Assembly (NCBI RefSeq): GCF_009834535.1
Contig: NC_045696.1
Location: 39,310,001 to 39,374,000, forward strand
Length of the DNA stretch: 64,000 bases
Source: Camelus ferus
Lineage: Eukaryota
Direction: 5' to 3'
Of the stretch, positions 37,900-52,806 are shown in pieces. How positions within the stretch are numbered: position 1 is the first letter of the stretch; each line of letters starts with the position of its first letter. The notes beneath the pieces were generated by a model, which was not told the DNA's origin, did no database searches, and worked only from the letters and a program-made list of their open reading frames with translations. The position numbers and the translations under genes were made by a program.

Positions 37900-38370
37900 G
37901 GCTCCAGGAACCGGCAGCGGCCGCCTCCTAAAATGAATTCCAGACACTTCCCTGATGCCAGGAGGAACTGGCCCTGAGAGTATGCACTGCAACAGGGTGC
38001 TTGGGTAGCTGTGGCCTGGGACCTTGGCCGACCTCGGTGCGGTGCCCCAGTGCCCACTCAGAAGCTGGCACAGCCGCCTGGGGCCTGCCGCCTCCGCCTC
38101 GGGAAGCAGACAGACCACGGGTCCCCTGCGCATGCGCACTTCACTCCCCCGTGCTGGCCTCGGGCGGTCGCGCGCCTGCTGTCTTTCTGCCAGGAGCGCA
38201 GTCGTCAGTGCCCCACACCTGGCGGGGCTCCTGGAGTGAGGTGCTTCTGCGTTGTGACTCTGACCTGGGCGCTGGGGGAGGCTTCCGTCAGGCTTCAGTC
38301 AAGATTAGGATTTGCTTCATAGGTTGCATTGGCCAGACTGCTCACAAACGGGTCCGAGAGGAGGAGCACC
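37900..38370. promoter_or_regulatory. CpG island with promoter-like motifs
   Basis: About 27 CpGs counted by eye in ~450 bp of GC-rich DNA within an otherwise CpG-depleted window. TGCGCATGCGCA at 38127-38138, GGCGGGGC at 38221-38228, and ETS-like CGGGAAG and CTTCCG. Confidence 0.8.
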
Positions 38371-41300
38371 CTGGTGTTTCTCATCCCAGGCATTTAATTT
38401 TGATGTATATTTTTGCTTATGGATAGGGAGATATTTCAGCTTAATATTTTTAAGTTAAAATGCTCTTTCCAATATGATCTCACTTTCTTAAAGGAATATG
38501 AGAAACATTCTGAAAGAATATATTTAAAATGACAGTAGTAACTTCACGTAGCCACCAAGGGTGTCTATTTCTTTAAATTTTAGCTTCCTTTTATACATTT
38601 CTGATTTTATGTCTTCGTTTCATTTTTTTCTATGAGTATGTATGAAAGTAATCATTTTATAGTAATAACTTTTCATTCTAATGAATGTAAATTTATAAAG
38701 AACTGGTGGACATTGGCATTCTTTTCTGCCGTAAAAGTTACCTTCACTTACTGTTTTTAATGCCTGTGTCAGATTGACATGTCCAAGTCAGGTTGGCTTG
38801 ATGCAGAATCTACTCCTCAGGTTGGAAAGCCACCTTAAGTCAGTGATGGAGTCAGTGTATTGCTCATTTACTAAAAGAGAAAAGCCAGCCTGTTTCTCCC
38901 AAACACTAGGGCTTGAAGGGACCAATCATAGTAATCTCACTTCACCCTCCCTGGAAGTGCTCTGATTATGGGCTGATTCAGAGCCCCAGCAGGAACCCAG
39001 AATAGAGAGTGATGAGGTTGAGCAACCAGCTATAATGAGCCCAGGAACCTGCACATACACTTACACAAGTGGAAGGGAGACCAGATAGGAGAACCAAGGG
39101 GAGAATGGAACCAGAGAGAGCTGCTCTAAGTAAACAGATCTGGAGAAGATGAGGAAGCAGACAGCAATAGGGATAGACACAGACTGGAGTAAGGAAAATG
39201 GAAAAGAGAGTGAGGTAGAAGAAAGGGAGCTACACAATGAAGGGAAATACTGTAGAGGCTACTCCAGAGTGTGTGTCACTCACTTAAGGAGAAATGAAAT
39301 GACACCGAGCTTGATCTAGTGGTGATTACATTAGATGAGTATATTAACAGGTAAAAATGCATTGGACTGCACACATAAGACAAATATATATATTACATGT
39401 GCATTATATCTTAATTTTTTAAAATACATCAAACTTCAATGGTGAACTCAGATTCTGATAGCTGAAAGGCCCCTGGTAATTGAGGAAGGAAGTCAAGAAG
39501 AATCCATTCACACTAACAGGGAGCAAAGTAAAAACAAAAACTTGAAGAAAAAAATTATGATTTTCCAAAAAAGTACCAAATGGCAATTCCTTTTCTTTCC
39601 TTCAACTCAAGCTGCACCGCTATCTTAATCGTCAAGATTATAAATATAAATAACTTGATATATATATATATATCAATATAAATTTATAATATCAATAACT
39701 GATATTTATGTTTAATATAAATAACTTGATATTTATATCAATTATACAAATATATCAAAATATTGATATGTATATAATATTAATATAAATGAGATTCTGA
39801 TATAGGGCACCAAAATGAAACAACTTAAAGATGCTTCTTTTTTTTCAGCTCCAGATTAGAAAATACTTAAGATTCTTTTGGATAAAGAAGTCATATTCGC
39901 TAAAAATCATTAATACCTCCTTGAAGATGAAACTTTTGTCTTTTGAGGTTTTGTTGTTGGTACTAAGTTATATTTGTATAAGGCTTCTGTTCTCAATCAA
40001 AGCAGCCATTGTTATTGTTACTAAGTGCTTTTGTAGTTGGCAGGCCTCACATTTTACAAGAGAAGGAGGGCAAGAAATATTTATTGACTAAATTACTGTG
40101 GTTTGATGGTGCTGGGAATTCAGGCCAATAGCAATTCAAGGTACCATTTTAAAGCTGAAGACAAGAGTGTAGAGGTCCTTTATGAAACAAACCTTTGATA
40201 CAGACTATCTAGGGACCAGGAACTAGAGTAATTTGCCTGAGATTGGATTGTTGTCATTTCCTTAATAATAAGAATTGGTTATCAGCTTGCTGGAGAGATT
40301 TTCTAGGGCTCTTTGTTTCACATAATGAAAGTGTGATTCTTGAAGGATAGTCTTAGCCCTCCTTGCTAAGGATGTCTCTGGCCCAAAGGGCTGCCTCAAT
40401 ACAAACTGTTTCTCATTCTGACACCCCTTTACCAGAAATCCCTATTGGTTTCCTAATAATGTCTATTGTGCATTGTTTGCAAATGAAACAAAACTTATTT
40501 GCAACTGTGTAACTTATTCAACTCCCAGTCTCTAAGGGCCAAACTTTTAATAAAGTCTCCAGTGAGGACAGTCAGGTTTACTACACATTTCACTGGATAT
40601 TATTAATTCACGCAAATCTCCCCCAGCTAACTAGTTACAGTTATAATTAACCAAATCATACACAGACATAAGTAATTTTAGTAGTATGCTCTAAAAAATG
40701 AAAAGACACAAGCATTAAACAAGACAGCAGTATTTATAATAAAGTTACTACTCTAGTATAATAAAGTTTCATAGTGTCTGCAAAAGTATCCACTATTAAT
40801 GAAAGCTTGTCTTGGCTCCCCTTCATACAGTGTTTCTGTGTTAAAAGAACTGTTCACTGGTTTGAACAAGCTCTCTTATGTATCCGTAAGACAAAATTTC
40901 CACATTTTCCTGTGGGACCAGCTCAGTGTTATGGTGTACTTCTGACCACCTGTTTACTGCAAGCAACACCCTGCTCTACACTTCTCAGGACCCACTCAAT
41001 GATTATGCCATTTGACAGACAGTACCATTTCAGTATATACTGTCAGTTACAGAAAAATAAAATTTTACCTATTAATCAAAATATGGGAAATAATTTGATC
41101 AAAATTGATCTAATTGATCTCGTTTGTGTCCCACTTGTGCAGAGCCTGAAACATAGGAGCTGAGAATCATGGGATCCAGTCCTGAACGAGCCTAGTAGAA
41201 GGAACTGACATGAGAGATGTTATAAAGGAAGAATCCATGGGACTTGATGACAGCTTGATAACAAAGTGGATATGGGCAGTGAGGATAATAGTGTCTTAGA

Positions 41301-43830
41301 TGATCCTGAATGTTTCGAGGGGATGCCTACTGTCTTCCTGTTGCTCTTTGGATACACTTGAGAATCTTGACCCTGGACCACAAGGCCCTGTGATATCTGA
41401 CCCCTCACTCCCGTTCTAGCTTCACTTACCACCACTATCCTCCAGGGTGGAGCCTGGATAGGGCAGTGGTGGCCATTGTTGGCTGCTACTCAAGTGGTGC
41501 CTCAGAAGACATCCAGATCTCTTATGGTGACTGTCCTGCTACAACTAATCTCTAAACATACCCTAGAGTCAATACTGGGCCTCCCTAGGAGGTCCAGAAA
41601 AAGAGTGGGAACAGGGTGAAGGCAGTGATCAGCTGTAAGAGGCAAAGGGGATTCGTATCTAAGGCTGTGTCTGAGCAGAGTCAAAGACTCCTATACAGGC
41701 AGTGCACTGAACTGTGTACAGAAACCACCTGCTTTAGTCCTCTGCTTCTCTAGAGCAAAGGACCTGGTGTGGGGAGAGGGAAAACACACACTTAAAAGGA
41801 ATGCAGCCAGCTCAAACACAATCCTCAGGGCTTCTGCTCCAGCAACTTGTAATTAGACCCTGCCCCTAACATAGTGGTGACAACCACCAACACCTCACAA
41901 CAAGCACCAGCTCTAGACTCTCCAGCTACAGCCTCACCCCCATCAAGGTGATAGCTGCCAGGACACCGTCAGGAAAGACGTCACTGGTATCCATGTCAAG
42001 CCCAGTTCTCCCACCTAATGCACTGGGCACACACAGTCTGTATACAGACACTCCTACACCTGAACCCCAATGTTCATAGCAGCACTATTTACAATAGCCG
42101 ACACATGGAAACAGCATAAATGTCCATCAATAGGTGACTGCATAAAGAAGATGTGGTATACTTATACAATGGAATACTATTCAGCCATAAAAACCGACAA
42201 CATAACGCCATTTGCAGCAACATGTATGTCCCTGGAGAATGTTATTCTAAGTGAAGTAAGCCAGAAAGGGAAAGGAAAATACCATATGAGATCGCTCATA
42301 TATGGAATCTAAAAACAAACAAACAAACAAACATAAATACAAAACAGAAATAGACTCATAGACATAGAATACACACTTGTGGTTGCCAAGGGGGTGGGGG
42401 ATGGGAAGGGACAGACTGGGATTTCAAACTTGTAGATACTGACAGGCATAAGCAGAATAGATAAATAAGATTATACTGTATAGAACTGGGAAATATATAC
42501 AAGATCTTGTTGTAGCTCACAGTGGGAAAAAAATGTGACAATGAATATATGTATGTTCATGCATAACTGAAAAATTGTGCTCTACACTGGAATTTGACAC
42601 AACATTGAAAAATGACTGTAACTCAATTCAAAAATGTTAAATAAATAAATAAATAAATTTACCAAATAAAAAATTCAAAAATATGTAATAAAATTACAAA
42701 TATAAACTGAATTAGGAAAAAGAATTGATCTAAAAACTGAACATTTTAACAAGGATCTGGAAAATATGTTTTAAAAAGATGCAATCAACAGTAATTCACT
42801 AGCGGATATTAAAAAACACACTAGAAGGAATGAATAGTAGACAAACTGATATAGAAGAACACATAAGTGATCTGGAAAACACAATAATAAAAATCAACCA
42901 ATCAGAACAGCAGAAAGAAAAACAAATTTAAAAATAAAAACAATTTAAGAGCTCTTTCAGGTAATATCAAGTGTTCCAATATTTGCATTATAGGGGTTAT
43001 AGGAGAAGAAAAAGAGAAGAGATCAAAAATATATTTGAAGGAATTATGTCTGAAAACTGTCCTAAGCTGAAGAAGCAAACAGATACCCACGTACAGGAAG
43101 CACAGAAACTTCAAAACAAGATGAACGCAAACAGACCTACACCAAGTCTTATCATAATTAAAATGGCGAAAGAGAAAGAGAAAATTCTAAAGGCACCAAG
43201 AGAAAAACAGTCATATAGTAGGGAATCCCCATAAGGTCATCAGCTGATTTCCCTGAAGAAACTTTGCAGGCCAGAAGTGAGTGGCATGATATATTCAAAG
43301 CACTAAAAGGGGAAAGCCTGCAGTGTAAGATACTCTACCCAGCAAGATTATCATTTAGAACGAGAGATAAAGAACTTCCCAAACAAAAACTAAAGAATTT
43401 ACCAATACTAAATCTACAGGGAAGAAATGTTGAAGCCTCTTCTCTAAATGGAAAAGAAGAAAGAACCTATAGGAAAGGGAAAAACCCCACAAGGAAAGGG
43501 AAATACATACTAAGGACAGTGGATCAACAAATTGAATACGCCACTATGTAGATTAAAACACCAAAAAAATTGTAAAATAAATTATAACTAAAATTAAGAG
43601 ATAAGCATGAAGATGTAAAATATAACATCAATACCACAAATTGTCACGGGGAGTAAAAAGTGTAGATCATTTAGAATGTGTATGAACTGAAATGATAAGT
43701 AGTTTAAAAGAGTAAGGTATAAGACAGGTCAACGTTTATGAACCCCAGGGTAGCCACTCATCAAAACCCCACAATAGATACGCAAAAACCGAAAAGAAAA
43801 AAAGCATACTGCTAAATGAAACAATAAAAC

Positions 43831-44240
43831 TGGTACGGAAACAACAGGCCAGCCAAGAAACAAGCACCACTTGGAGGGTTGGAGTACTCAGATTTATTAT
43901 GCCAGCAGGCTCAGAGGGGCTTCTACTCTGAAGCTCTGAGCACCTCCAAGACGTGTGCATAAAGCTTTATAGGGTTAATTACAAGCTTGGGGTATTCGGC
44001 CAATAGGCATGGAATAGCTTTAGCAGCATCATTATCACAAAAGTAGAGGCAGGGAGGCAGCAAACCAACATTTCAAGGCCAGATATGTCTCTTTGAAAAT
44101 CCAGCTGGTTAGCAAAAACAAACAAAACAAAACAAAACAAAACAAAACAAAAAACCATGAGCAGTGAATCAGCAAACCAACACTTGTTATACTTAGATTT
44201 ACGAGTTAGCTTCTTAGCTGAGCTTGTCTTTTCCTTCTCA
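43831..44240 (-). repeat. ERV 3' LTR (410 bp)
   Basis: Aligns end to end with 52420-52806. The length difference is almost all due to an internal (CAAAA)n expansion. Preceded by the PPT. Confidence 0.96.
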
Positions 44241-44252
44241 TTCCCTCCTCTT
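44241..44252 (-). promoter_or_regulatory. Polypurine tract
   Basis: AAGAGGAGGGAA on the minus strand, immediately before the 3' LTR. Confidence 0.9.
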
Positions 44253-44267
44253 GATGCTTTCACAACC

Positions 44268-45761
44268 CTAGTTGGAGTAAGCATCATCACTTATCTGTTG
44301 CAAGGGCTCATAATTGGAAGCTAACATCTGAAGTTTTATAGCCTCTACCCGCTCACGGACAAAGCGGGTCAGGAAGTTTAGGACACAGGGCCCAAATAGC
44401 AGAACTGCAAAAATCAGGAGCAAGGGACTTATGAACGGTGCCAGCCAGGAGGTCCATCTCTGGGGCCTGTCCATGGGCTCTTATCTAAAATATGTTTCTT
44501 CTTTTCCACTGAGTCTTGTAACTTTTGAACCATCCCTCTGACAATTCCTGATTGATTGGCATAAAAACAGCACTCTTCATTTAGGAAGAGGCATAGTCCC
44601 CTCTCTTTGGCCATGAGTAGGTCCAGACCCCTCCTGTTTTGTAAGACCACCTCTGCCAGAGTCAATCTGATTTTGCAGAGCTCCCAGGGTTTCTGCTATT
44701 CATTGGAGATCTTGGCTGAACTCACCTGTAAGCTGTTAACAGTAATAAGAGGATGAGGCTATGCCACCGATTCCTGTGCCCACCCCTGTTGCCACTCCAA
44801 GCCCCACTAGCAAGGGGTTCAGCTGTATGGTTCATTTTATTCTCCATGGATGCTGGTGAGTTACGACAGGGATGGGTGGACTTTGATTATTAGGCATAAC
44901 GTCCATTCGGGGAGTGAGATAAGCCAAAGCACATAACCCTGCCCACCCGGCAGGGAGGCATCGGTAGGCAAATTCACCACACACACAAAATAAGTCCCAT
45001 TATTAGGACACCATCCTTGTGTGGGCTGGCACCCTAAACCCATACAGTGTGAGGATTTAATACATTGTTTTATAGTTAGTTTGCCCTCTAAAGGATTAGT
45101 TCCATTATTGAAATAACATTCTGGTGCCTTGTAGGCGAGCTGTACCCAGTTTAGCCTGGAACTCCTAGTGGTAGAGGCAGCATCACTATTAGTCGTAGTA
45201 AAAGTTTTAGTGAGGTTTGTCAGAGGTAAGGCCAGGTGCTGGATGGGGCAGGGATGCAAGCATAGCCAGCAATCTTTAGCCAAGTCTGGATTGGAATGAT
45301 TGAGAATCCCATGGACTGTGGCTAACAGCCCATTTATTTGTGGATCTAGATCCCGAGGCTTGGCTAAAGTTGGAAGCTTTATTGGCTCCCGGGTAAGTAA
45401 TAATTTCTGGTGTTGCCTCTGGACTGCTTGTTGGACTGCTTGCCAGCGTGCCTGGTCCTGAATCCCTCCTCCATCACTCATCCCATGTGTTTGCTTGGTT
45501 CAGCACACCAGCTTGCCGGGTGTGCCATAGCACTTGATGCCAGATACATAATAAGCCTTAATTGTGCCGATCCAGTAGGATCTTCCCTGCTACGTGCACT
45601 CTGAAGTGGAGTCATAGCATTGACTCGGCTGATAAGTAAGCTGAAAATACAGGTCGGTACACGGACCACCTGTCACCCAGTTCAGTGTAGGTGCATTGTG
45701 CAGCCAAGGGGAGTGAGGGCATTAGTGTCAGTAACATCAGCCTTATGATTATCTTAGACAT
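44268..45761 (-). pseudogene. env: ERV env, gamma-type of the RD114/D-type/syncytin-1 (RDR) group, disrupted
   Basis: Signal-peptide-like MSKIIIRLMLLTLMPSLPLAA from ATG 45761, then SDGGGIQDQAR, CWLC, furin site RIK* (R codon mutated), fusion peptide [32 protein letters not shown]6CC (CLFLNEECC) and TM anchor [23 protein letters not shown]. Confidence 0.93.
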
Positions 45762-45925
45762 GATGCTGCAGTGACGGCACTAGTTATAACAAGGTATAAA
45801 ATAGCTATCAGGATCCTATGGCCTATATTCCAGTCAGGTGGGGTGGTGCTGGCCAGCCCCACCGCTAATACTCAGGCTAGTACAGCAAACAAGGAAAGAG
45901 GCAAGGGAGCACAAGAGGAATACAT
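45749..45925 (-). pseudogene. Candidate small hydrophobic ORF between pol and env (58 codons, one internal TGA)
   Basis: MYSSCAPLPLSLFAVLA*VLAVGLASTTPPDWNIGHRILIAILYLVITSAVTAASCLR*. It fills the pol-env gap and overlaps the env ATG by 13 nt. Confidence 0.45.
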
Positions 45926-45948
45926 TTAACAGTTTCGTTGCGCTTTCC

Positions 45949-48900
45949 TCAAGCTTCGGCCATGCGTTGACTAGCCAGCTTCCAGGTGTGGCTAGAGCAG
46001 GTCTCATCAATCCTTCTCTGGCCCCTCTTGATATTGATCTTGAGCAAGTCTCCTGGGACGCTCTCAATTTTCTAGGGACTCTCTGTCTGTGGTGAAGTCG
46101 CTCTCTTAACCCTGGAGTGGTGGATCCAAGGGATGATTCTTGCAACTTTAACAGCTGTAGGGGTAGTTAATACCACTAAATATGGTCCCTTCCATGTTGG
46201 TTTCAGAGGTTCCTTTTCCCAGTCCTTCACCCATATTTGGTCACCTGGTTTATGGGGATGGACTTGGACTCCTAATGAAATGGGGGTTCTCTCTATTACC
46301 CAATCCCAAATTTCCCATAGTACTTGTCCTAGTCCCAACAGTTGTTGGTGGAGCCCTAAATTTCCTATCTCCAGGGTGGGATTTCCCATCCTGACTAAAG
46401 GTGGTGGTGAAAACTAAAGGTGAAACCCATAGAGGATTTCAAAGGGAGAGTACCCAATATTAAATCTTGGGGTGCATCTAATTCACAACAGAGCCAGGGG
46501 TAAAATGTCCACCCAGGGGAGCTGGGTTTCCTGGCTGATTTTAGCTATCATTTATTTTTAGATTTCTGTTCATTCATTCTACCTTCCCTGAGCTTTGAGG
46601 CTGGTATGCTGTGTGTAGGTTCCAGTGGATGCTCAGTGTCTTTGCAACTTGCTGTACAATTTCTGCCACGAAGGCGGGTCCATTGTCGGACCCGCTGGAG
46701 GTAGGCATTCCAGACCGAAGGATGACATCCCTGAGGAGAGCCTTTGTCACCTCCCTTGCTTTCTCTGTCCTGGTGGGGTAGGCTTCTACCCACCCTGTGA
46801 AGGTGCAGACAAAAACCAGCAGGTACTTATATCCCTTACTGGGCCCAAGTTCAGTAAAGTCCACTTCTAAATCTTCAAAGGGAGCCAATCCACATCGTCG
46901 TATTCCCGTTGGCCCAGTGGGCCCTTGTTTTGGATTGTTTTGAGCACAGAGCAAGCAGCGTTGGGAGACTGATGCACACAGAGTAGGGAGACGAGAAATC
47001 AGGAAATACCGCTTCAGCAGGGCCTACAAAGCCGTTTTTCCCATATGTGTGGCTTCGTGTTGTTGTTGTACTATGCGATAAGCTAGTCGTTCTGGGATGA
47101 AAACCCTTCCATCCATTATGATCCACCATCCATCCTTTCCTTTCTTCCCTTGTTCGGCCTGTGCCCACTTGTTTTCATCGTGGCTATATTCTGGGGCAGT
47201 GGGTAGCTCTGTTGTTGCCATAATTTTCATTACTGGGTGTTTCTGGGTGGCTGCCTCTCTTGCCTTTTGATCAGCCAGCCTGTTCCCCTGGCTCACAGGG
47301 TCATTTCCTTTTTGGTGTCCCTTACAGTGAATAACAGCCACTTCCTTTGGATCCCATACTGCCTCCAGTAACTGTAAAATTTCTTCTTTGTTTTTGATTT
47401 CCTTTCCCCCAGCAGTCAAAAGTCCTCTCTCCTTATAGACGGCTCCATGTACATGCAAGGTTGCAAATGCTTATTTGGAATCAGTGTATATATTGACTCA
47501 TTTTCCTTTCCCTTCCCTTAGTGCCTGGACCAGTGCCCAGATCTCTGCTCGCTGAGCAGACCATCCTGGGGGAAGGGACTCTGCCTTTATTACCTCTTGG
47601 GTTGTTGTTACAGCATAACCTGCTTGCCATTGTTCATCCTGCACATAACTGCTGCTGTCTGTGAAAAGTTCCAGGTCTGGGTTTTGCAGGGGCTTGTCGG
47701 TTAGATCAGGCCTGCTCACGTACACTTCTTCGATGATTTCTTTGCAGTCGTGGTCAGGCCACCCTTCCCTCTCAGGCAAATATGTGGCTGGGTTTAAGGT
47801 TCACAGTCTCTAGACGGACTCTTGGATTTTCACATAGAAGCCCCTGGTAGTGGGTCATTCTTGTGTTAGTTATCCATTTGTAACCTGGGCTGTTCATCAG
47901 GGCCACCACAGAATGGGGCACTTTTACATTTAAAGTCTGTCCCAGGGTGAGTCTGTCTGCCTTGTTGACCAGGGAGTCTGTGGCAGCGAGGGCCCGTAGA
48001 CAGGGTGGCCATACTGATGCTACAGGGTCCAGTCTTTTAGACAAGTAGGCCACAGGGCGCTGCCACGGCCCCACATTCTGAGTCAGGACTCCGAGAGCGG
48101 TTTGGTCTCTTTCATGCACAAACAGGTTAAACTCTCGCGTTACATCTGGTAAGCCTAGTGCTGGGGCTTGGGTGAGCGGTTCCTTTAATTGCCTAAAGGC
48201 ATTTTCTTGTTCAGTTTCCCATTTGAGGGTTTCCTTTCCTGATCCAGCAGTTGCTTTGTAGAGGGGCTTGGCTATTCTTGAAAACCTGGGGATCCAGATC
48301 TGGCAAAACCCAGCTGCGCCCAGGAACTCTCGCAGTTTCCTTTTTGTTTCTGGTCTGGGTATGGCGCAAATAACTTGTTTTCACTCTGGTCCTAGGGCTC
48401 GGTGTCCCTCTGAGATAATAAATCCCAGGTATTTGACTGTCTTTTTGCAGATCTGGGCCTTTTTCCACGAGACCTTGTACCCAGTTGTTTAGAGTAACCC
48501 TAGGAGGGCTCAAGTTCCTCTCCAACAGTCCTCTTCACTGGGGCTGGCTAACAGCAAGTCATCCACATACTGGAGCAGAGTACAGTTCAATGTCTCCCCA
48601 GGGAATTTTACAAGGTCTGCAGCTAGTGCCTCTCCGAACAAGGTGGGCGAGTTTTTAAAGCCTTGGGGGAGACATGTCCATGTCAGTTGAGTTTTCTCTC
48701 CTGTATGGGGATTCTCCCATTCAAATGCGAATATGGGCTGGCTCACAGGTAAGAGTCAAAGACAGAAGAAAGCGTCTTTAAGGTCTAGGCATGTAAACCA
48801 TTTGGCGCCTGCTGGAATGAGGCCTAGAAGAGTGTATGGATTTGGCACTGCTGGATGTATTGTAGTGACTAGTTCACTTACTTTTCGTAAGTCCTGAACT

Positions 48901-49562
48901 GGCCTATAATCTATTCCTTCAGCTTTCTTCACCGGGAGCAACGATGTGTTTCAAAGAGATCTGCACTTGGTTAGGATTCCCTCTTGTCAGAGGCGCTGTA
49001 TGTGCTTCTCGATTCCTAGGTGAGCCTCTTGAGGCATGGGATATTGCTTCTGTCTGACCGGGCTGGCTCCAGGATTGAGGTCAATCACCAGTGGTGCCTG
49101 ATTATGTGCCAAGCCTGGCGGCCCATTCTCAGCCCAGACTAATGGAAACTCTTCCAGGAGTTTGTTAGGATTTTCCTGGAGTTCTCTACTCTCATATAGA
49201 TGCTATTCTTCTTCTCGGGGAACTGAGACGGCTAGAATCATAGCTTCTCCCCTTAGGGTCAGATGTGCCTGTTTCCCGGGGACGAAGGTAATTTGTGCTC
49301 CCAATTTAGATAGAAGGTCTCTTCCGAGCAATGGTATCAGGCATTCAGGCAAGTATAAAAATTCATGTGTCACTAGATGGCCCCCTACTTGACAGAATCG
49401 TAGCTGGCAGAAATGGCAGGCAGTCGAGTCCCCAGTAGCCCCTATAATAGTCGCCTTTTTCTTGGTCATGGGGTCTATACTCTGCTTCTGTGTCCATAAA
49501 AGTCATTGGTTGGCCCCCTATCAACATTTTGACCTTGGGCTTCTGGGGGAGCCTGGTCTCTC
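45949..49562 (-). pseudogene. pol: ERV pro-pol (protease, RT, RNase H, integrase), disrupted
   Basis: Protease [33 protein letters not shown] and LQYVDDLLL; RNase H LFTDSSS...SAQRAE; integrase HEATH, VDFTE, SDNGPAFV and WKGPY. The IN frame continues through a TAG (46072-46074) to ...CSSHTWKLASQRMAEA* at 45949. Confidence 0.95.
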
Positions 49563-51139
49563 CTATTCTGAATCAACCCTAGCCAATCTGATGCAATTAC
49601 TAGTGGCTCCAGCTGATAAGGAGGCCTTTTGCGGGGGGCTGTCTTCCCATCCTCTCTGTTTGGGCACCCATTCTTCCAGTGTCCTGTCTCCCGGCAATAT
49701 GCACATCGATCTCCACCCAGAGGCACCCATGGTCGGGGTCCCCTCTTCCGGTGGGGGGTGCAGGATTCTGGCTGAAGCCTGTTTTCCCCAGGGCTGCTGC
49801 AAGGAGTGTGGCTTTCTGCTTCACTTCGCTGGTCTGCTTCTCGTTGGGCTTCCCGTTCTCAGTTTACAAAAACTTTGTTTGCTACTTCCAGCAGCTGTGT
49901 AGCGTTCATCCCTGCTGAATCCATCCAGTTTCTAGAGTTTCCAGCATATATCTGGGCACAATTGGGCCACGAAGGCAGTGTTGGCCATCCGCTGGTTTTC
50001 TTGGGCCTCAGGGAGTGTAGACTCGGAATGCTTCACATAGTCTCTCATAGAACTCAGTGGGGGTTTCGTCTGGCCTCTGTCACCATGTTCGTTTTAGACA
50101 TGTTAGGTGTCTTCTTGGCTCCTGCTCTTAGCCCTTATAGTATGGCCTCCCAGTACTCATGCAGTGCTTCTCTTCCTTCTTGGGTGTTAAAGTCCCAATC
50201 TGGTCTAATGTCAGGGGCCCGTGACATGGCCAACCCCTCAACATCCACTGTGTCCCCGGGGGCTCGGCCCTGCAGCCATTTTCGTGCTTCAGTGAGAATG
50301 CGTCCTCTCCTCCTGTATTGAAAAGAGTCAGAAGCAGCTGGCAGACATCTTCCCAGGTGGGCCGGTGAGAATGGAAGATAGACTCTACGAGGTCAATCAT
50401 AGCCTGCGGCTTCTCAGAGTAGGAAGGAGTGTGATGGCTCCAATTGAGAAGGTCTGTGGTGCTAAAAGGTTGGTAGTAGAGTACAGGGTGCCCGGGCTGA
50501 ACAGTCCCGTCTTCCCCAACTTGCTGCGGCCCTTGTGTCTCCTGCAGCGGCATTTGGAGGGCCGGCGGTGCTGGTCTCCCGGCTTGTGCTGAGCGGAGTC
50601 TCCTTCCTACAGGCTCAGGCTGGGGGCTGGGCTCTGCCTCTGGGTCCTCAGGTTGGGGAGGTGGTGACCCAGAGGGTGGCGGTGTCTCCAGTGGGACCAG
50701 AGGTGTCGGTGCCCCAGGCGTACACTGGAGGGGGCAGGCACATCTTGTCCTCTGTGTCTCCCTGGAAAATAGGCTTTTCTCTATCTGTCTTTTTGGCCTG
50801 GACCGGCTTAGCTGCTAATAACTTGCATTGTCCAGGTCCATTTGAGCAGAACCAAATCCATGGGGGTAGAGTCTGGGCAGTATTCAGCCAGGAGTCAATG
50901 TAAGGGAATTGATCTGGGTGGCCTGGGGTTCCAGTGATTATTTGATAGACTGCTCGCACTGTTGCTAGGTCCAGAGTTCCTCCTGAGGGCCACCTGACTC
51001 CAAAGGTCAGCCATTCAAGCTCACAAAAAGTGCGAATCCTGCCAGGGGTCATTCAAACTCTATAGTCTCCTGAGAATCCCTTTTTGAAATCCTTAATCAT
51101 GCAGCCTAGGGTGGTGGGTTTTGACTTCGAGCCTCCCAT
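49563..51139 (-). pseudogene. gag: ERV gag (MA-CA-NC), disrupted
   Basis: Starts MGGSKSKPTTLGCMIKDFKKGFSGDYRV*MTPGRIRTFCELEW (myristoylation-type MG start). CA contains YYQPFSTTDLLNWSHHTPSYSEKPQ, and there is a single CCHC knuckle CAYCRETGHWKNGC. Ends at TAG 49563-49565 followed by G, a gamma-type readthrough junction. Confidence 0.93.
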
Positions 51140-51152
51140 TCTGTCTAGATGT

Positions 51153-51658
51153 TTAAGGATAATAGATCTGTTGCTTTGGGTGTTTGGGAAGGTAGCCTTT
51201 ATATCTTTTCCTTCTTCACTCTTCAAAACAGCAGAGTTCCCAGAAAGACCACTCTCTTGCTGGGTCTATTAGTTGTTTGAAGGTTAATTTCATCAGGGAG
51301 TCTGGGTTCCAGTCACAGCTGATGTCTCTGGAGCTCAAGGCCTCAAGCAGTTCCAGAGGCTTCCTCACTAAATCCCTCTCTACATCCTGAACTAATGTAC
51401 CAAGGGCGTGGGAGAAGTCCTGACAGCAAAACAAATGGACTAGAAAGGGGACCTCCAAGGCCGGGTGAGCCCAGTCCTGAAGAAATTCATCTTCTAAACT
51501 CAAATCCTGGGGGTCTGAGGCTAGGCAAAAGGGGCACTCCTTGGGTCAGTTCAGTAGGGGAACAATAAGTCTTGGGTGTTCTGTGACAGAGCCAAGTAGG
51601 AGGCTTTCTCAAAGAAATAGTATTCTAGCCTCTGAGGGCACAGGGGGCATTGACTCAT
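51153..51658 (-). pseudogene. Candidate decayed pre-gag ORF (Cys-rich, unknown function)
   Basis: Manual translation extends the 95-aa ORF-track frame (51216-51503) in both directions across TGA stops. It ends at TAA 51153-51155, 13 nt before the gag ATG. Confidence 0.6.
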
Positions 51659-52186
51659 TGGCTGTTTTACCTCCCTTTCCCTCCCAGTGTAGCCACCCTG
51701 TGCCGGTGTCAGCAGACAAGACAAGGGAGGGTTTTTGCTACATCTGCCTGGCTGCTCCCCTCATGGGGACGAAGGTGCCTCTTAGCTTTGGTGGGTCAGT
51801 ATAAGCCACTGACTCTGATCGGGACCCTGAGGGACCGATACCACCCTGAGCCGTATGAGGTCACCATGGAACCTGCAGGTTGGGACTCACTCGAACTCTG
51901 TAGCAGAATTCCATGGAGCTACAAACTCGAGCCTGATCTCATGCTTCACAGGCTGCACATTCATTCACACACACAAACACACACACACACACACACAGAG
52001 GTTAACAACAGTCCTCCCACCAATCCCAATATCCTGTTTCCTGTAGGAGGGGATCAGCCTCTTCTTTTGTCCACTGGGACAGGACCTGATTTCCCCATCT
52101 TGAATACCGTCAGACAGGAAGCCTGTGGGAGGGGATCAGCCTCCTCTTCTGTCCACTGGGACAGGACCTGATTTCTCCCCAGGGGT

Positions 52187-52195
52187 TCCTACCTT
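52187..52195 (-). promoter_or_regulatory. Candidate ERV major splice donor
   Basis: AAG|GTAGGA on the minus strand, ~200 nt after the PBS and upstream of all viral ORFs. Confidence 0.5.
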
Positions 52196-52397
52196 GTCCA
52201 GATGAACACCTGGTGAGTCTGTCCCTCCACCGAGTCTGGCTCTGGTTGTAGCCCAGCCACCCAAGGGGGGCCAAGTCGACGTCACAAAAGAGAACCCAGA
52301 ATACCGTCGGGCGGCACAACTTCGTTTGCTGCCGGAGTCCTGTCTCCCGGTTGGTCAGAGCCACGAGCCCAGCGGTTCAAGGGGCTGGCATGGTTGA

Positions 52398-52415
52398 CTC
52401 TTGCTGGGGCCTCCA
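52398..52415 (-). promoter_or_regulatory. Primer binding site, tRNA-Thr(TGT)-like
   Basis: Minus strand TGGAGGCCCCAGCAAGAG, 4 nt after the 5' LTR. It matches 16/18 to the complement of the mammalian tRNA-Thr(TGT) 3' end as recalled (TGGAGGCCCCAGCGAGAT). Confidence 0.85.
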
Positions 52416-52419
52416 GAAA

Positions 52420-52806
52420 TGTTATGGAAACGACAGGTCAGCCAAGAAACAAGCACCACTCAGAGGGTTGGAGTACTCAGATTTATTACGCCGGCAGGCT
52501 CAGAGGGGCTTCTGCTCCAATGCTCTAAGCACCTCCAAGACATGTGCATAAAGTTTTATAGGGTTAATTACAAGCTTGGGGTATTTGGCCAATAGGCATG
52601 GAATAGCTTTAGCAGCATCATTATCACAAAAATAGAGGCAGGGAGGCAGCAAACCAACATTTCAAGGCCAGATATGTCTCTTTGAAAATCCAGCTGGCTA
52701 GCAAAAATAAAATAAAATAAAACATGAGCAGGGAATCAGCAAACCAACACTTGTTACACTTAGATTTACAGTAAGCTTGCTAGTTGAGCCTGTCTTTTCC
52801 TTCTCA
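52420..52806 (-). repeat. ERV 5' LTR (387 bp)
   Basis: On the minus strand it starts TGAGAAGG and ends CCATAACA. TATA-like CCTATAAA at ~52555-52562, AATAAA at 52482-52487, CCAAT at ~52589-52593. Followed by the PBS. Confidence 0.96.

Follow-up and report, generated by a model that had tools for sequence, protein, structure and literature searches.

A conserved, apparently undescribed small membrane-protein reading frame between pol and env of gamma-like endogenous retroviruses

We analyzed a 64,000-nucleotide stretch of Camelus ferus DNA (contig NC_045696.1, positions 39,310,001 to 39,374,000 of the forward strand; hereafter the window, with coordinates counted from its first letter), in which a decayed provirus on the minus strand carries a small open reading frame (ORF) between pol and the envelope gene env. 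This ORF represents a real, conserved and apparently undescribed small membrane-protein ORF of gamma-like endogenous retroviruses (ERVs) that occupies a position similar to that of vpu in human immunodeficiency virus type 1 (HIV-1), in a family in which env has a splice acceptor of its own. Judging from the protein records, the frame, together with both of its ends and its hydrophobic pattern, is conserved across about seven lineages, so that the gap between pol and env most likely holds the gene for a conserved two-helix membrane protein of approximately 59 residues. At the camel locus itself, the ORF is a pseudogene and is dead.

The reading frame between pol and env

45749..45925, minus strand: small membrane-hairpin ORF, 58 codons, with one TGA at codon 18 (45874-45872)
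45851..45907, minus strand: hydrophobic segment 1, about codons 7-25, with a conserved Gly-Leu at its end
45818..45850, minus strand: loop, codons 26-36, with conserved Pro29, Asp31 and Trp32
45761..45817, minus strand: hydrophobic segment 2, about codons 37-55, with conserved Ala41, Tyr44 and Leu45; Cys56 follows

As an initial annotation of this DNA had read it, the ORF runs from an ATG at 45925 through a single internal TGA to a TAA ending at 45749, and contains two hydrophobic stretches, with 19-residue Kyte-Doolittle maxima of 2.2 (segment 1) and 2.27 (segment 2). The gap between the pol stop (45949) and the env ATG (45761), estimated there at about 190 nucleotides (nt), measures 187 nt; the env ATG lies in the +2 frame relative to the small ORF, and the two overlap by four codons. 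The contrast drawn between a weak context of the small-ORF ATG (TAAATGT) and the A at position -3 of the env ATG (ATCATGT) also holds. The two-segment shape by itself is weak evidence, no better than chance: 14 of the 2578 ATG-started 58-codon frames in the window combine two segments with at most one stop, and on both strands of the provirus alone, 2 of 257 share the shape. It is the homology that does exceed chance.

Relatives of the frame

A word-index search with the window peptide gave no match, a limit of the sensitivity of such a search, since there are relatives at 40% identity. The open integrase end of pol, used as the query, returned 20 proteins, 17 of which were examined (three amphibian records were omitted). 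Two of these pol relatives (P0009 and P0015), found without bias through their integrase, continue downstream into a clear homologue of the peptide; the remaining 15 stop at or before the end of pol or run into unrelated sequence and are uninformative. With the hairpin of P0015 as the query, 10 short free-standing proteins were detected, eight of them of 59-61 residues, and a hidden Markov model built from the short relatives yielded 20 representatives at E<=1e-3, to which cluster look-ups added further members. In total, 62 of 71 records align to the window frame, with z scores of 11.7-25.5 against composition shuffles; the other nine comprise a fragment that ends at codon 21 and eight cluster members of 50-53 residues, and both of the latter that were examined are integrase pieces. 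Together with its own start and stop, these relatives bear out the claim that the ORF is not a chance frame. Against seven records, the two alternative frames of this DNA score z <= 1.5, and the neighboring hydrophobic frame can accordingly be set aside as the true one.

The relatives extend well beyond the camel locus, as the initial annotation had proposed to check: about seven lineages, with representatives 30-56% identical, keep the P-x-D-W loop and the length. The lineages were counted by pairwise identity, the tree of 36 hairpins being poorly resolved (5 of 31 branches supported). Many relative records carry a pol-end motif upstream and thus have the same position next to pol. The repeat fused to P0040 and P0079 presumably places one group in a ruminant host. 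Parts of P0015 and P0088, used as queries, retrieved no usable match. Among candidates for the DNA of a relative, L001 was rejected as a phage false positive, and L002 and L003 are matches of 18-22 residues in bacterial records.

The pol-end motif, of about 55 nt (45945-46005), is common to other ERV families; many contigs match the window only there and diverge on both sides. P0009, P0036, P0061 and P0079 hold two tandem copies of it. In P0009, P0015, P0034, P0061 and P0079, a single frame leads from the end of pol into the hairpin, through either decay or a true Pol extension in two lineages.

In some lineages at least, the hairpin could extend Pol at its C-terminus and anchor Gag-Pol or integrase in the membrane. 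P0009, P0015 and P0061 pass from integrase into the hairpin without a change of frame, P0034 and P0079 are in frame from pol-end-like sequence, and P0035, P0054 and P0061 lack a Met. We nevertheless regard such an extension as unlikely given that the window hairpin is in the +2 frame relative to pol with stops between them, that P0048 enters the hairpin from another frame, and that gene callers prefer long fused frames in decayed copies.

Evidence for a coding function

After near-duplicates were dropped, along with P0033 and its members, which diverge after codon 40, 35 of the 62 records were placed on the window codons, 30 of them without gaps. An own conserved start and stop, as is to be expected of an accessory gene, is seen in 21 of 34 records (Met at codon -2 to 3) and in 26 of 35 (end at codon 56-60), respectively; the end falls later in eight records and earlier in one. 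Among the 35 records, Gly23 is retained in 33, Leu24 in all, Pro29 in 32, Asp31 in 28, Trp32 in 33 and Tyr44 in 33, and Arg or Lys occupies positions 36-38 in 33. Cysteines are found at 54-58 in 30 of 34 records and at 3-6 in 23 of 34. Across the seven lineages, at a mean identity of 38%, five of 42 columns are invariant, compared with 1.0-1.5 expected under equal rates (P 0.004-0.014). The identity of the hairpin to the window is 40% in P0009 and 44% in P0015, compared with 58% and 50%, respectively, for the integrase end; noncoding DNA at such depth would be expected to be far more eroded. We also compared the conservativeness of mismatches with a neutral nucleotide model fitted to the same identity and the local base composition. 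The mismatches were significantly more conservative than neutral in three of six tests (P0009, p 0.003; P0015, p 0.004-0.007; P0047, p 0.0004).

It appears improbable that these patterns reflect conservation at the RNA level, that is, of acceptors, pyrimidine tracts or splicing control, with T/C-rich codons yielding Leu, Phe, Ile and Val as a by-product. Such an explanation would draw on the acceptor-like sites in both segments (see below), the hydrophobicity of the neighboring frame, the chance occurrence of similar frames in T-rich DNA (the 14 of 2578 above) and the selection of the relatives as open frames. However, the conservative substitutions remain with the local base composition in the null model, the start and end are retained, the invariant Gly, Pro and Trp residues sit in the purine-richer loop, and the identity of the hairpin nears that of the integrase end.

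It is very unlikely that the frame served as an N-terminal Env leader or is a signal peptide left behind when env was replaced, although small residues at -3/-1 spacing where segment 1 ends are present in 26 of 35 records, and P0088 and P0047 continue into env-like sequence. Apart from these two exceptions, no in-frame extension of env was found: the window env lies in the other frame with its own acceptor, the small ORF has its own stop, and 26 of 35 records stop at codon 56-60. In the group of P0043 and P0088, three records terminate at codon 56-57 and another three continue, which makes the end uncertain there; P0088 and its sibling P0043 agree over 22 residues past the hairpin and then diverge, which is the pattern of a frameshift in a decayed copy. 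Moreover, a leftover signal peptide would not retain a second conserved helix. The tail of P0088 is unrelated to the surface unit (SU) piece of the window; by its looks, we take it to be an ERV3-type SU, which no tool confirmed. Independence of the hairpin from the env type is suggested.

Taken together, we hold it quite probable that the frame is a coding gene, whichever mRNA serves it.

Splicing

52191..52193, minus strand: splice donor, exon end 52193, intron start GT (RNA contig junction and window sequence)
45779..45782, minus strand: env splice acceptor inside the small ORF, exon start 45779, 18 nt before the env ATG (one contig, RNA run X19)
45991..45993, minus strand: candidate upstream acceptor, AG, at which an exon would start at 45991; pyrimidine fraction 0.47
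45876..45896, minus strand: further candidate acceptor-like site in segment 1; pyrimidine fraction 0.79
45949..45963, minus strand: end of the pol frame, overlapping a 4-codon upstream ORF (uORF) (frame reading)

The stretch is contained wholly or partly in 20 of the 24 listed runs, and contigs from one probable DNA run and three RNA runs were compared over 45300-46400; such contigs show presence, not absence. In RNA run X19, one contig ceases to follow the window at 45773 and continues for 69 loose letters; the 30 of these that were listed agree with the leader as far as 52193, a match that occurs once in the window and in none of 100 shuffles. This defines a junction from the donor at 52193 to an acceptor at 45779 with GT..AG ends, found instead of the expected splice from 52192 to about 45991. 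Three of the first six exon letters differ, indicating that the X19 RNA comes from a paralogous copy. The spliced mRNA makes Env without the small ORF, from a separate acceptor that lies within the 3' end of the latter. Eight-letter loose ends at 45773 in runs X15 and X17 were rejected as junction evidence because they are equally compatible with spliced and with unspliced RNA. All three RNA runs contain one contig that joins approximately 45731 to 44899 without GT-AG ends, pointing to an expressed copy that lacks most of SU.

These observations bear on the vpu/env-like layout originally envisaged, in which a single bicistronic spliced mRNA would yield the hairpin and, by leaky scanning, Env. 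The weak context of the small ATG, the stronger one of the env ATG and the four-codon overlap fit this layout, and an mRNA spliced at 45991 would hold both ORFs, so that some leak-through is possible. However, the acceptor at 45779 is located downstream of the small-ORF ATG, which implies an env-only mRNA in the family, and leaky scanning is not needed; on the evidence of this one contig from a paralogous copy, we assign the bicistronic layout a low probability. The AG at 45993-45992 and the MAEA uORF are both present as described, but the uORF is not conserved: its AUG faces a matching Trp in 3 of 16 copies of the pol-end motif. The 45991 site is pyrimidine-poor but is embedded in the motif common to other families, where loose ends fall at 45945 and 45999.

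The proposed gene

We propose that, in a broad group of mammalian gamma-like retroviruses, the gap between pol and env holds a fourth gene of accessory type, the product of which would be a protein of about 59 residues with two membrane helices and a short P-x-D-W loop between them. The small protein would be translated from its own singly spliced mRNA, in which the donor in the leader is joined to the acceptor near 45991 at the end of pol, whereas Env would come from the second acceptor (45779) and the same donor, which makes two singly spliced mRNAs. Complex retroviruses serve their accessory genes through alternative acceptors. We consider this entire scheme, an accessory membrane-protein gene with two singly spliced mRNAs, moderately likely to be correct.

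Several observations weigh against it. With respect to the locus, none of the host-family differences listed (40 of 325) falls in the TGA codon, and other host copies may share the stop at codon 18; five listed differences lie inside the ORF, only one of them at a third codon position. Among the relatives, the end lies outside codons 56-60 in 9 of 35 records, and the Met is missing from 13 of 34; being protein records, all of them are open by construction, and similarity guided the choice of most. In the substitution test, which relies on local alignments and a rough rate model, P0042 gave no significant result (p 0.25-0.31), and the results for P0044 and P0050 were marginal (p 0.06-0.08). No DNA of a relative was found in viral, metagenome or genome contigs, and the tests that favor purifying selection are those at the protein level. 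With regard to splicing, none of the 24 loose ends listed, out of 91, corresponds to a junction at 45991, and the pyrimidine tracts of the acceptor-like sites overlap both hydrophobic segments.

Predicted structure and topology

For the natural relative P0023, AlphaFold2 predicts helices at 8-27 and 30-58 (predicted local distance difference test score, pLDDT, 71; predicted template modeling score, pTM, 0.40). No Pfam family scored above the cut-off for the hairpin in 13 relatives, a sequence search of the PDB gave a single match (E 2.5), and none of 73 matches in a BFVD fold search reached E<=0.001. PsbZ (E 0.14) was rejected as a look-alike hairpin. The predicted product has the size and shape of a viroporin, that is, a small protein with one or two membrane helices. 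It would form a hairpin or else consist of a signal plus an anchor, with the P-x-D-W loop in the lumen and a cysteine next to the membrane; segment 1 could be a cleaved signal or an uncleaved anchor. Both ends are expected to be cytosolic, and lipidation of the terminal cysteines is possible. The opposite orientation would likewise be compatible with the conserved Arg/Lys that precedes helix 2, and the topology could thus be either. A function as a membrane accessory protein is inferred only; from the size and place of the gene, we would guess that it acted within the secretory pathway, with membranes or the membrane proteins of host or virus as targets, perhaps in release, Env traffic or the counteraction of a host factor, by analogy to the proteins compared below.

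The provirus and its surroundings

43831..52806, minus strand: decayed gamma-like (class I) provirus with a 4-bp target-site duplication, GTTT
52420..52806, minus strand: 5' long terminal repeat (LTR), aligned with the 3' LTR
43831..44240, minus strand: 3' LTR, aligned with the 5' LTR
52398..52415, minus strand: primer-binding-site-like stretch, identified by eye, which we take to be tRNA-Gln-like
46072..46413, minus strand: integrase C-terminal part of pol, open piece (MLVIN_C, E 2e-19)
44268..45761, minus strand: env, broken by stops and frameshifts (TLV_coat; SU related to syncytin-1)

The assignment to class I is based on an integrase C-terminus of the murine leukemia virus (MLV) type with a GPY motif, a gamma-type env, paired LTRs (29 mismatches over 390 aligned positions) and the target-site duplication. 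Stops and frameshifts are present in gag, pol and env alike: the pol tail stops at 45951-45949, and an earlier TAG already interrupts pol at 46074-46072. The env matches TLV_coat (E 8e-28), its SU piece matches syncytin-1 (E 4e-4), and an immunosuppressive domain and the CX6CC motif are visible. The leader just 3' of the donor (52060-52180) shows a direct duplication of about 50 nt, with a (TG)n run near 52000, and the 3' LTR contains a (TTTTG)n expansion (44190-44215) that is not in the 5' LTR. The surrounding host DNA is L1-rich and mammalian, with L1 ends of camelid appearance. It includes a GC-richer island at 41200-42080, with a frame (41870-42079) that resembles the tail of keratin-8 and is, we presume, perhaps a processed pseudogene, and a GC-rich island at 37900-38400 amid AT-rich L1 DNA.

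Relation to known systems and implications

In HIV-1, the small membrane protein Vpu is encoded just upstream of env and overlaps the env start, and the ORF described here shares this position directly 5' of env and the overlap. As initially stated, the likeness is one of analogy, not homology: there is no sequence match, the hairpin in 13 relatives reaches the cut-off of no Pfam family, two helices replace the single transmembrane helix of Vpu, the cytoplasmic DSGxxS tail is missing, and env does not depend solely on a shared bicistronic mRNA but, on the evidence of the one contig, has its own acceptor. The p12 protein of human T-cell leukemia virus type 1 is a small hydrophobic accessory protein with two putative membrane segments and its own alternatively spliced mRNA; in contrast to the present ORF, it belongs to a deltaretrovirus, is encoded after env and has about 99 residues, and our searches returned no match to it. 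The p7 protein of hepatitis C virus is a two-helix viroporin of about 60 residues that forms a helical hairpin with a basic residue beside the loop. The predicted product resembles it in size, hairpin and basic residue by the loop, but shows neither homology nor a significant fold match (see the BFVD search above). To our knowledge, gammaretroviruses are treated as viruses with gag, pol and env, glyco-Gag being the one known extra product.

Glyco-Gag of MLV (PMC5120145) is a membrane-bound extra protein that counteracts a host factor; it is an N-terminal extension of Gag made from unspliced RNA, whereas the ORF described here is a separate gene between pol and env. According to PMC4299795, the crocodilian CrocERV29 also has an extra ORF between pol and env, which is a captured host gene, the KIT ligand; in contrast, the present ORF has no cellular match and is common to many mammalian lineages. 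In the passages available from PMC13754704, one donor of a HERV-E locus is spliced to several acceptors, and no mention is made of a small membrane ORF; the five passages of PMC5016936 on HERV-W contain no ORF between pol and env. No description of such an ORF was found in the portions of the full-text literature covered, including PMC9631305 and PMC9604959; with subscription journals and the Dfam and Repbase annotations outside this scope, a prior mention is possible.

There seems to be an even chance that a whole branch of mammalian gamma-like viruses classed as simple carried an undescribed accessory gene for a two-helix membrane microprotein, served by a spliced mRNA of its own and retained despite deep divergence and the exchange of env, and that intact copies may still be translated in living mammals. 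Many open-frame copies survive in public data, so that expression and co-option are directly testable. If true, a large fossil lineage of retroviruses would become 'complex' through a separate, conserved membrane microprotein encoded between pol and env. Such a protein would also provide a new marker independent of the env type and would indicate a host pathway with which these viruses had to contend.

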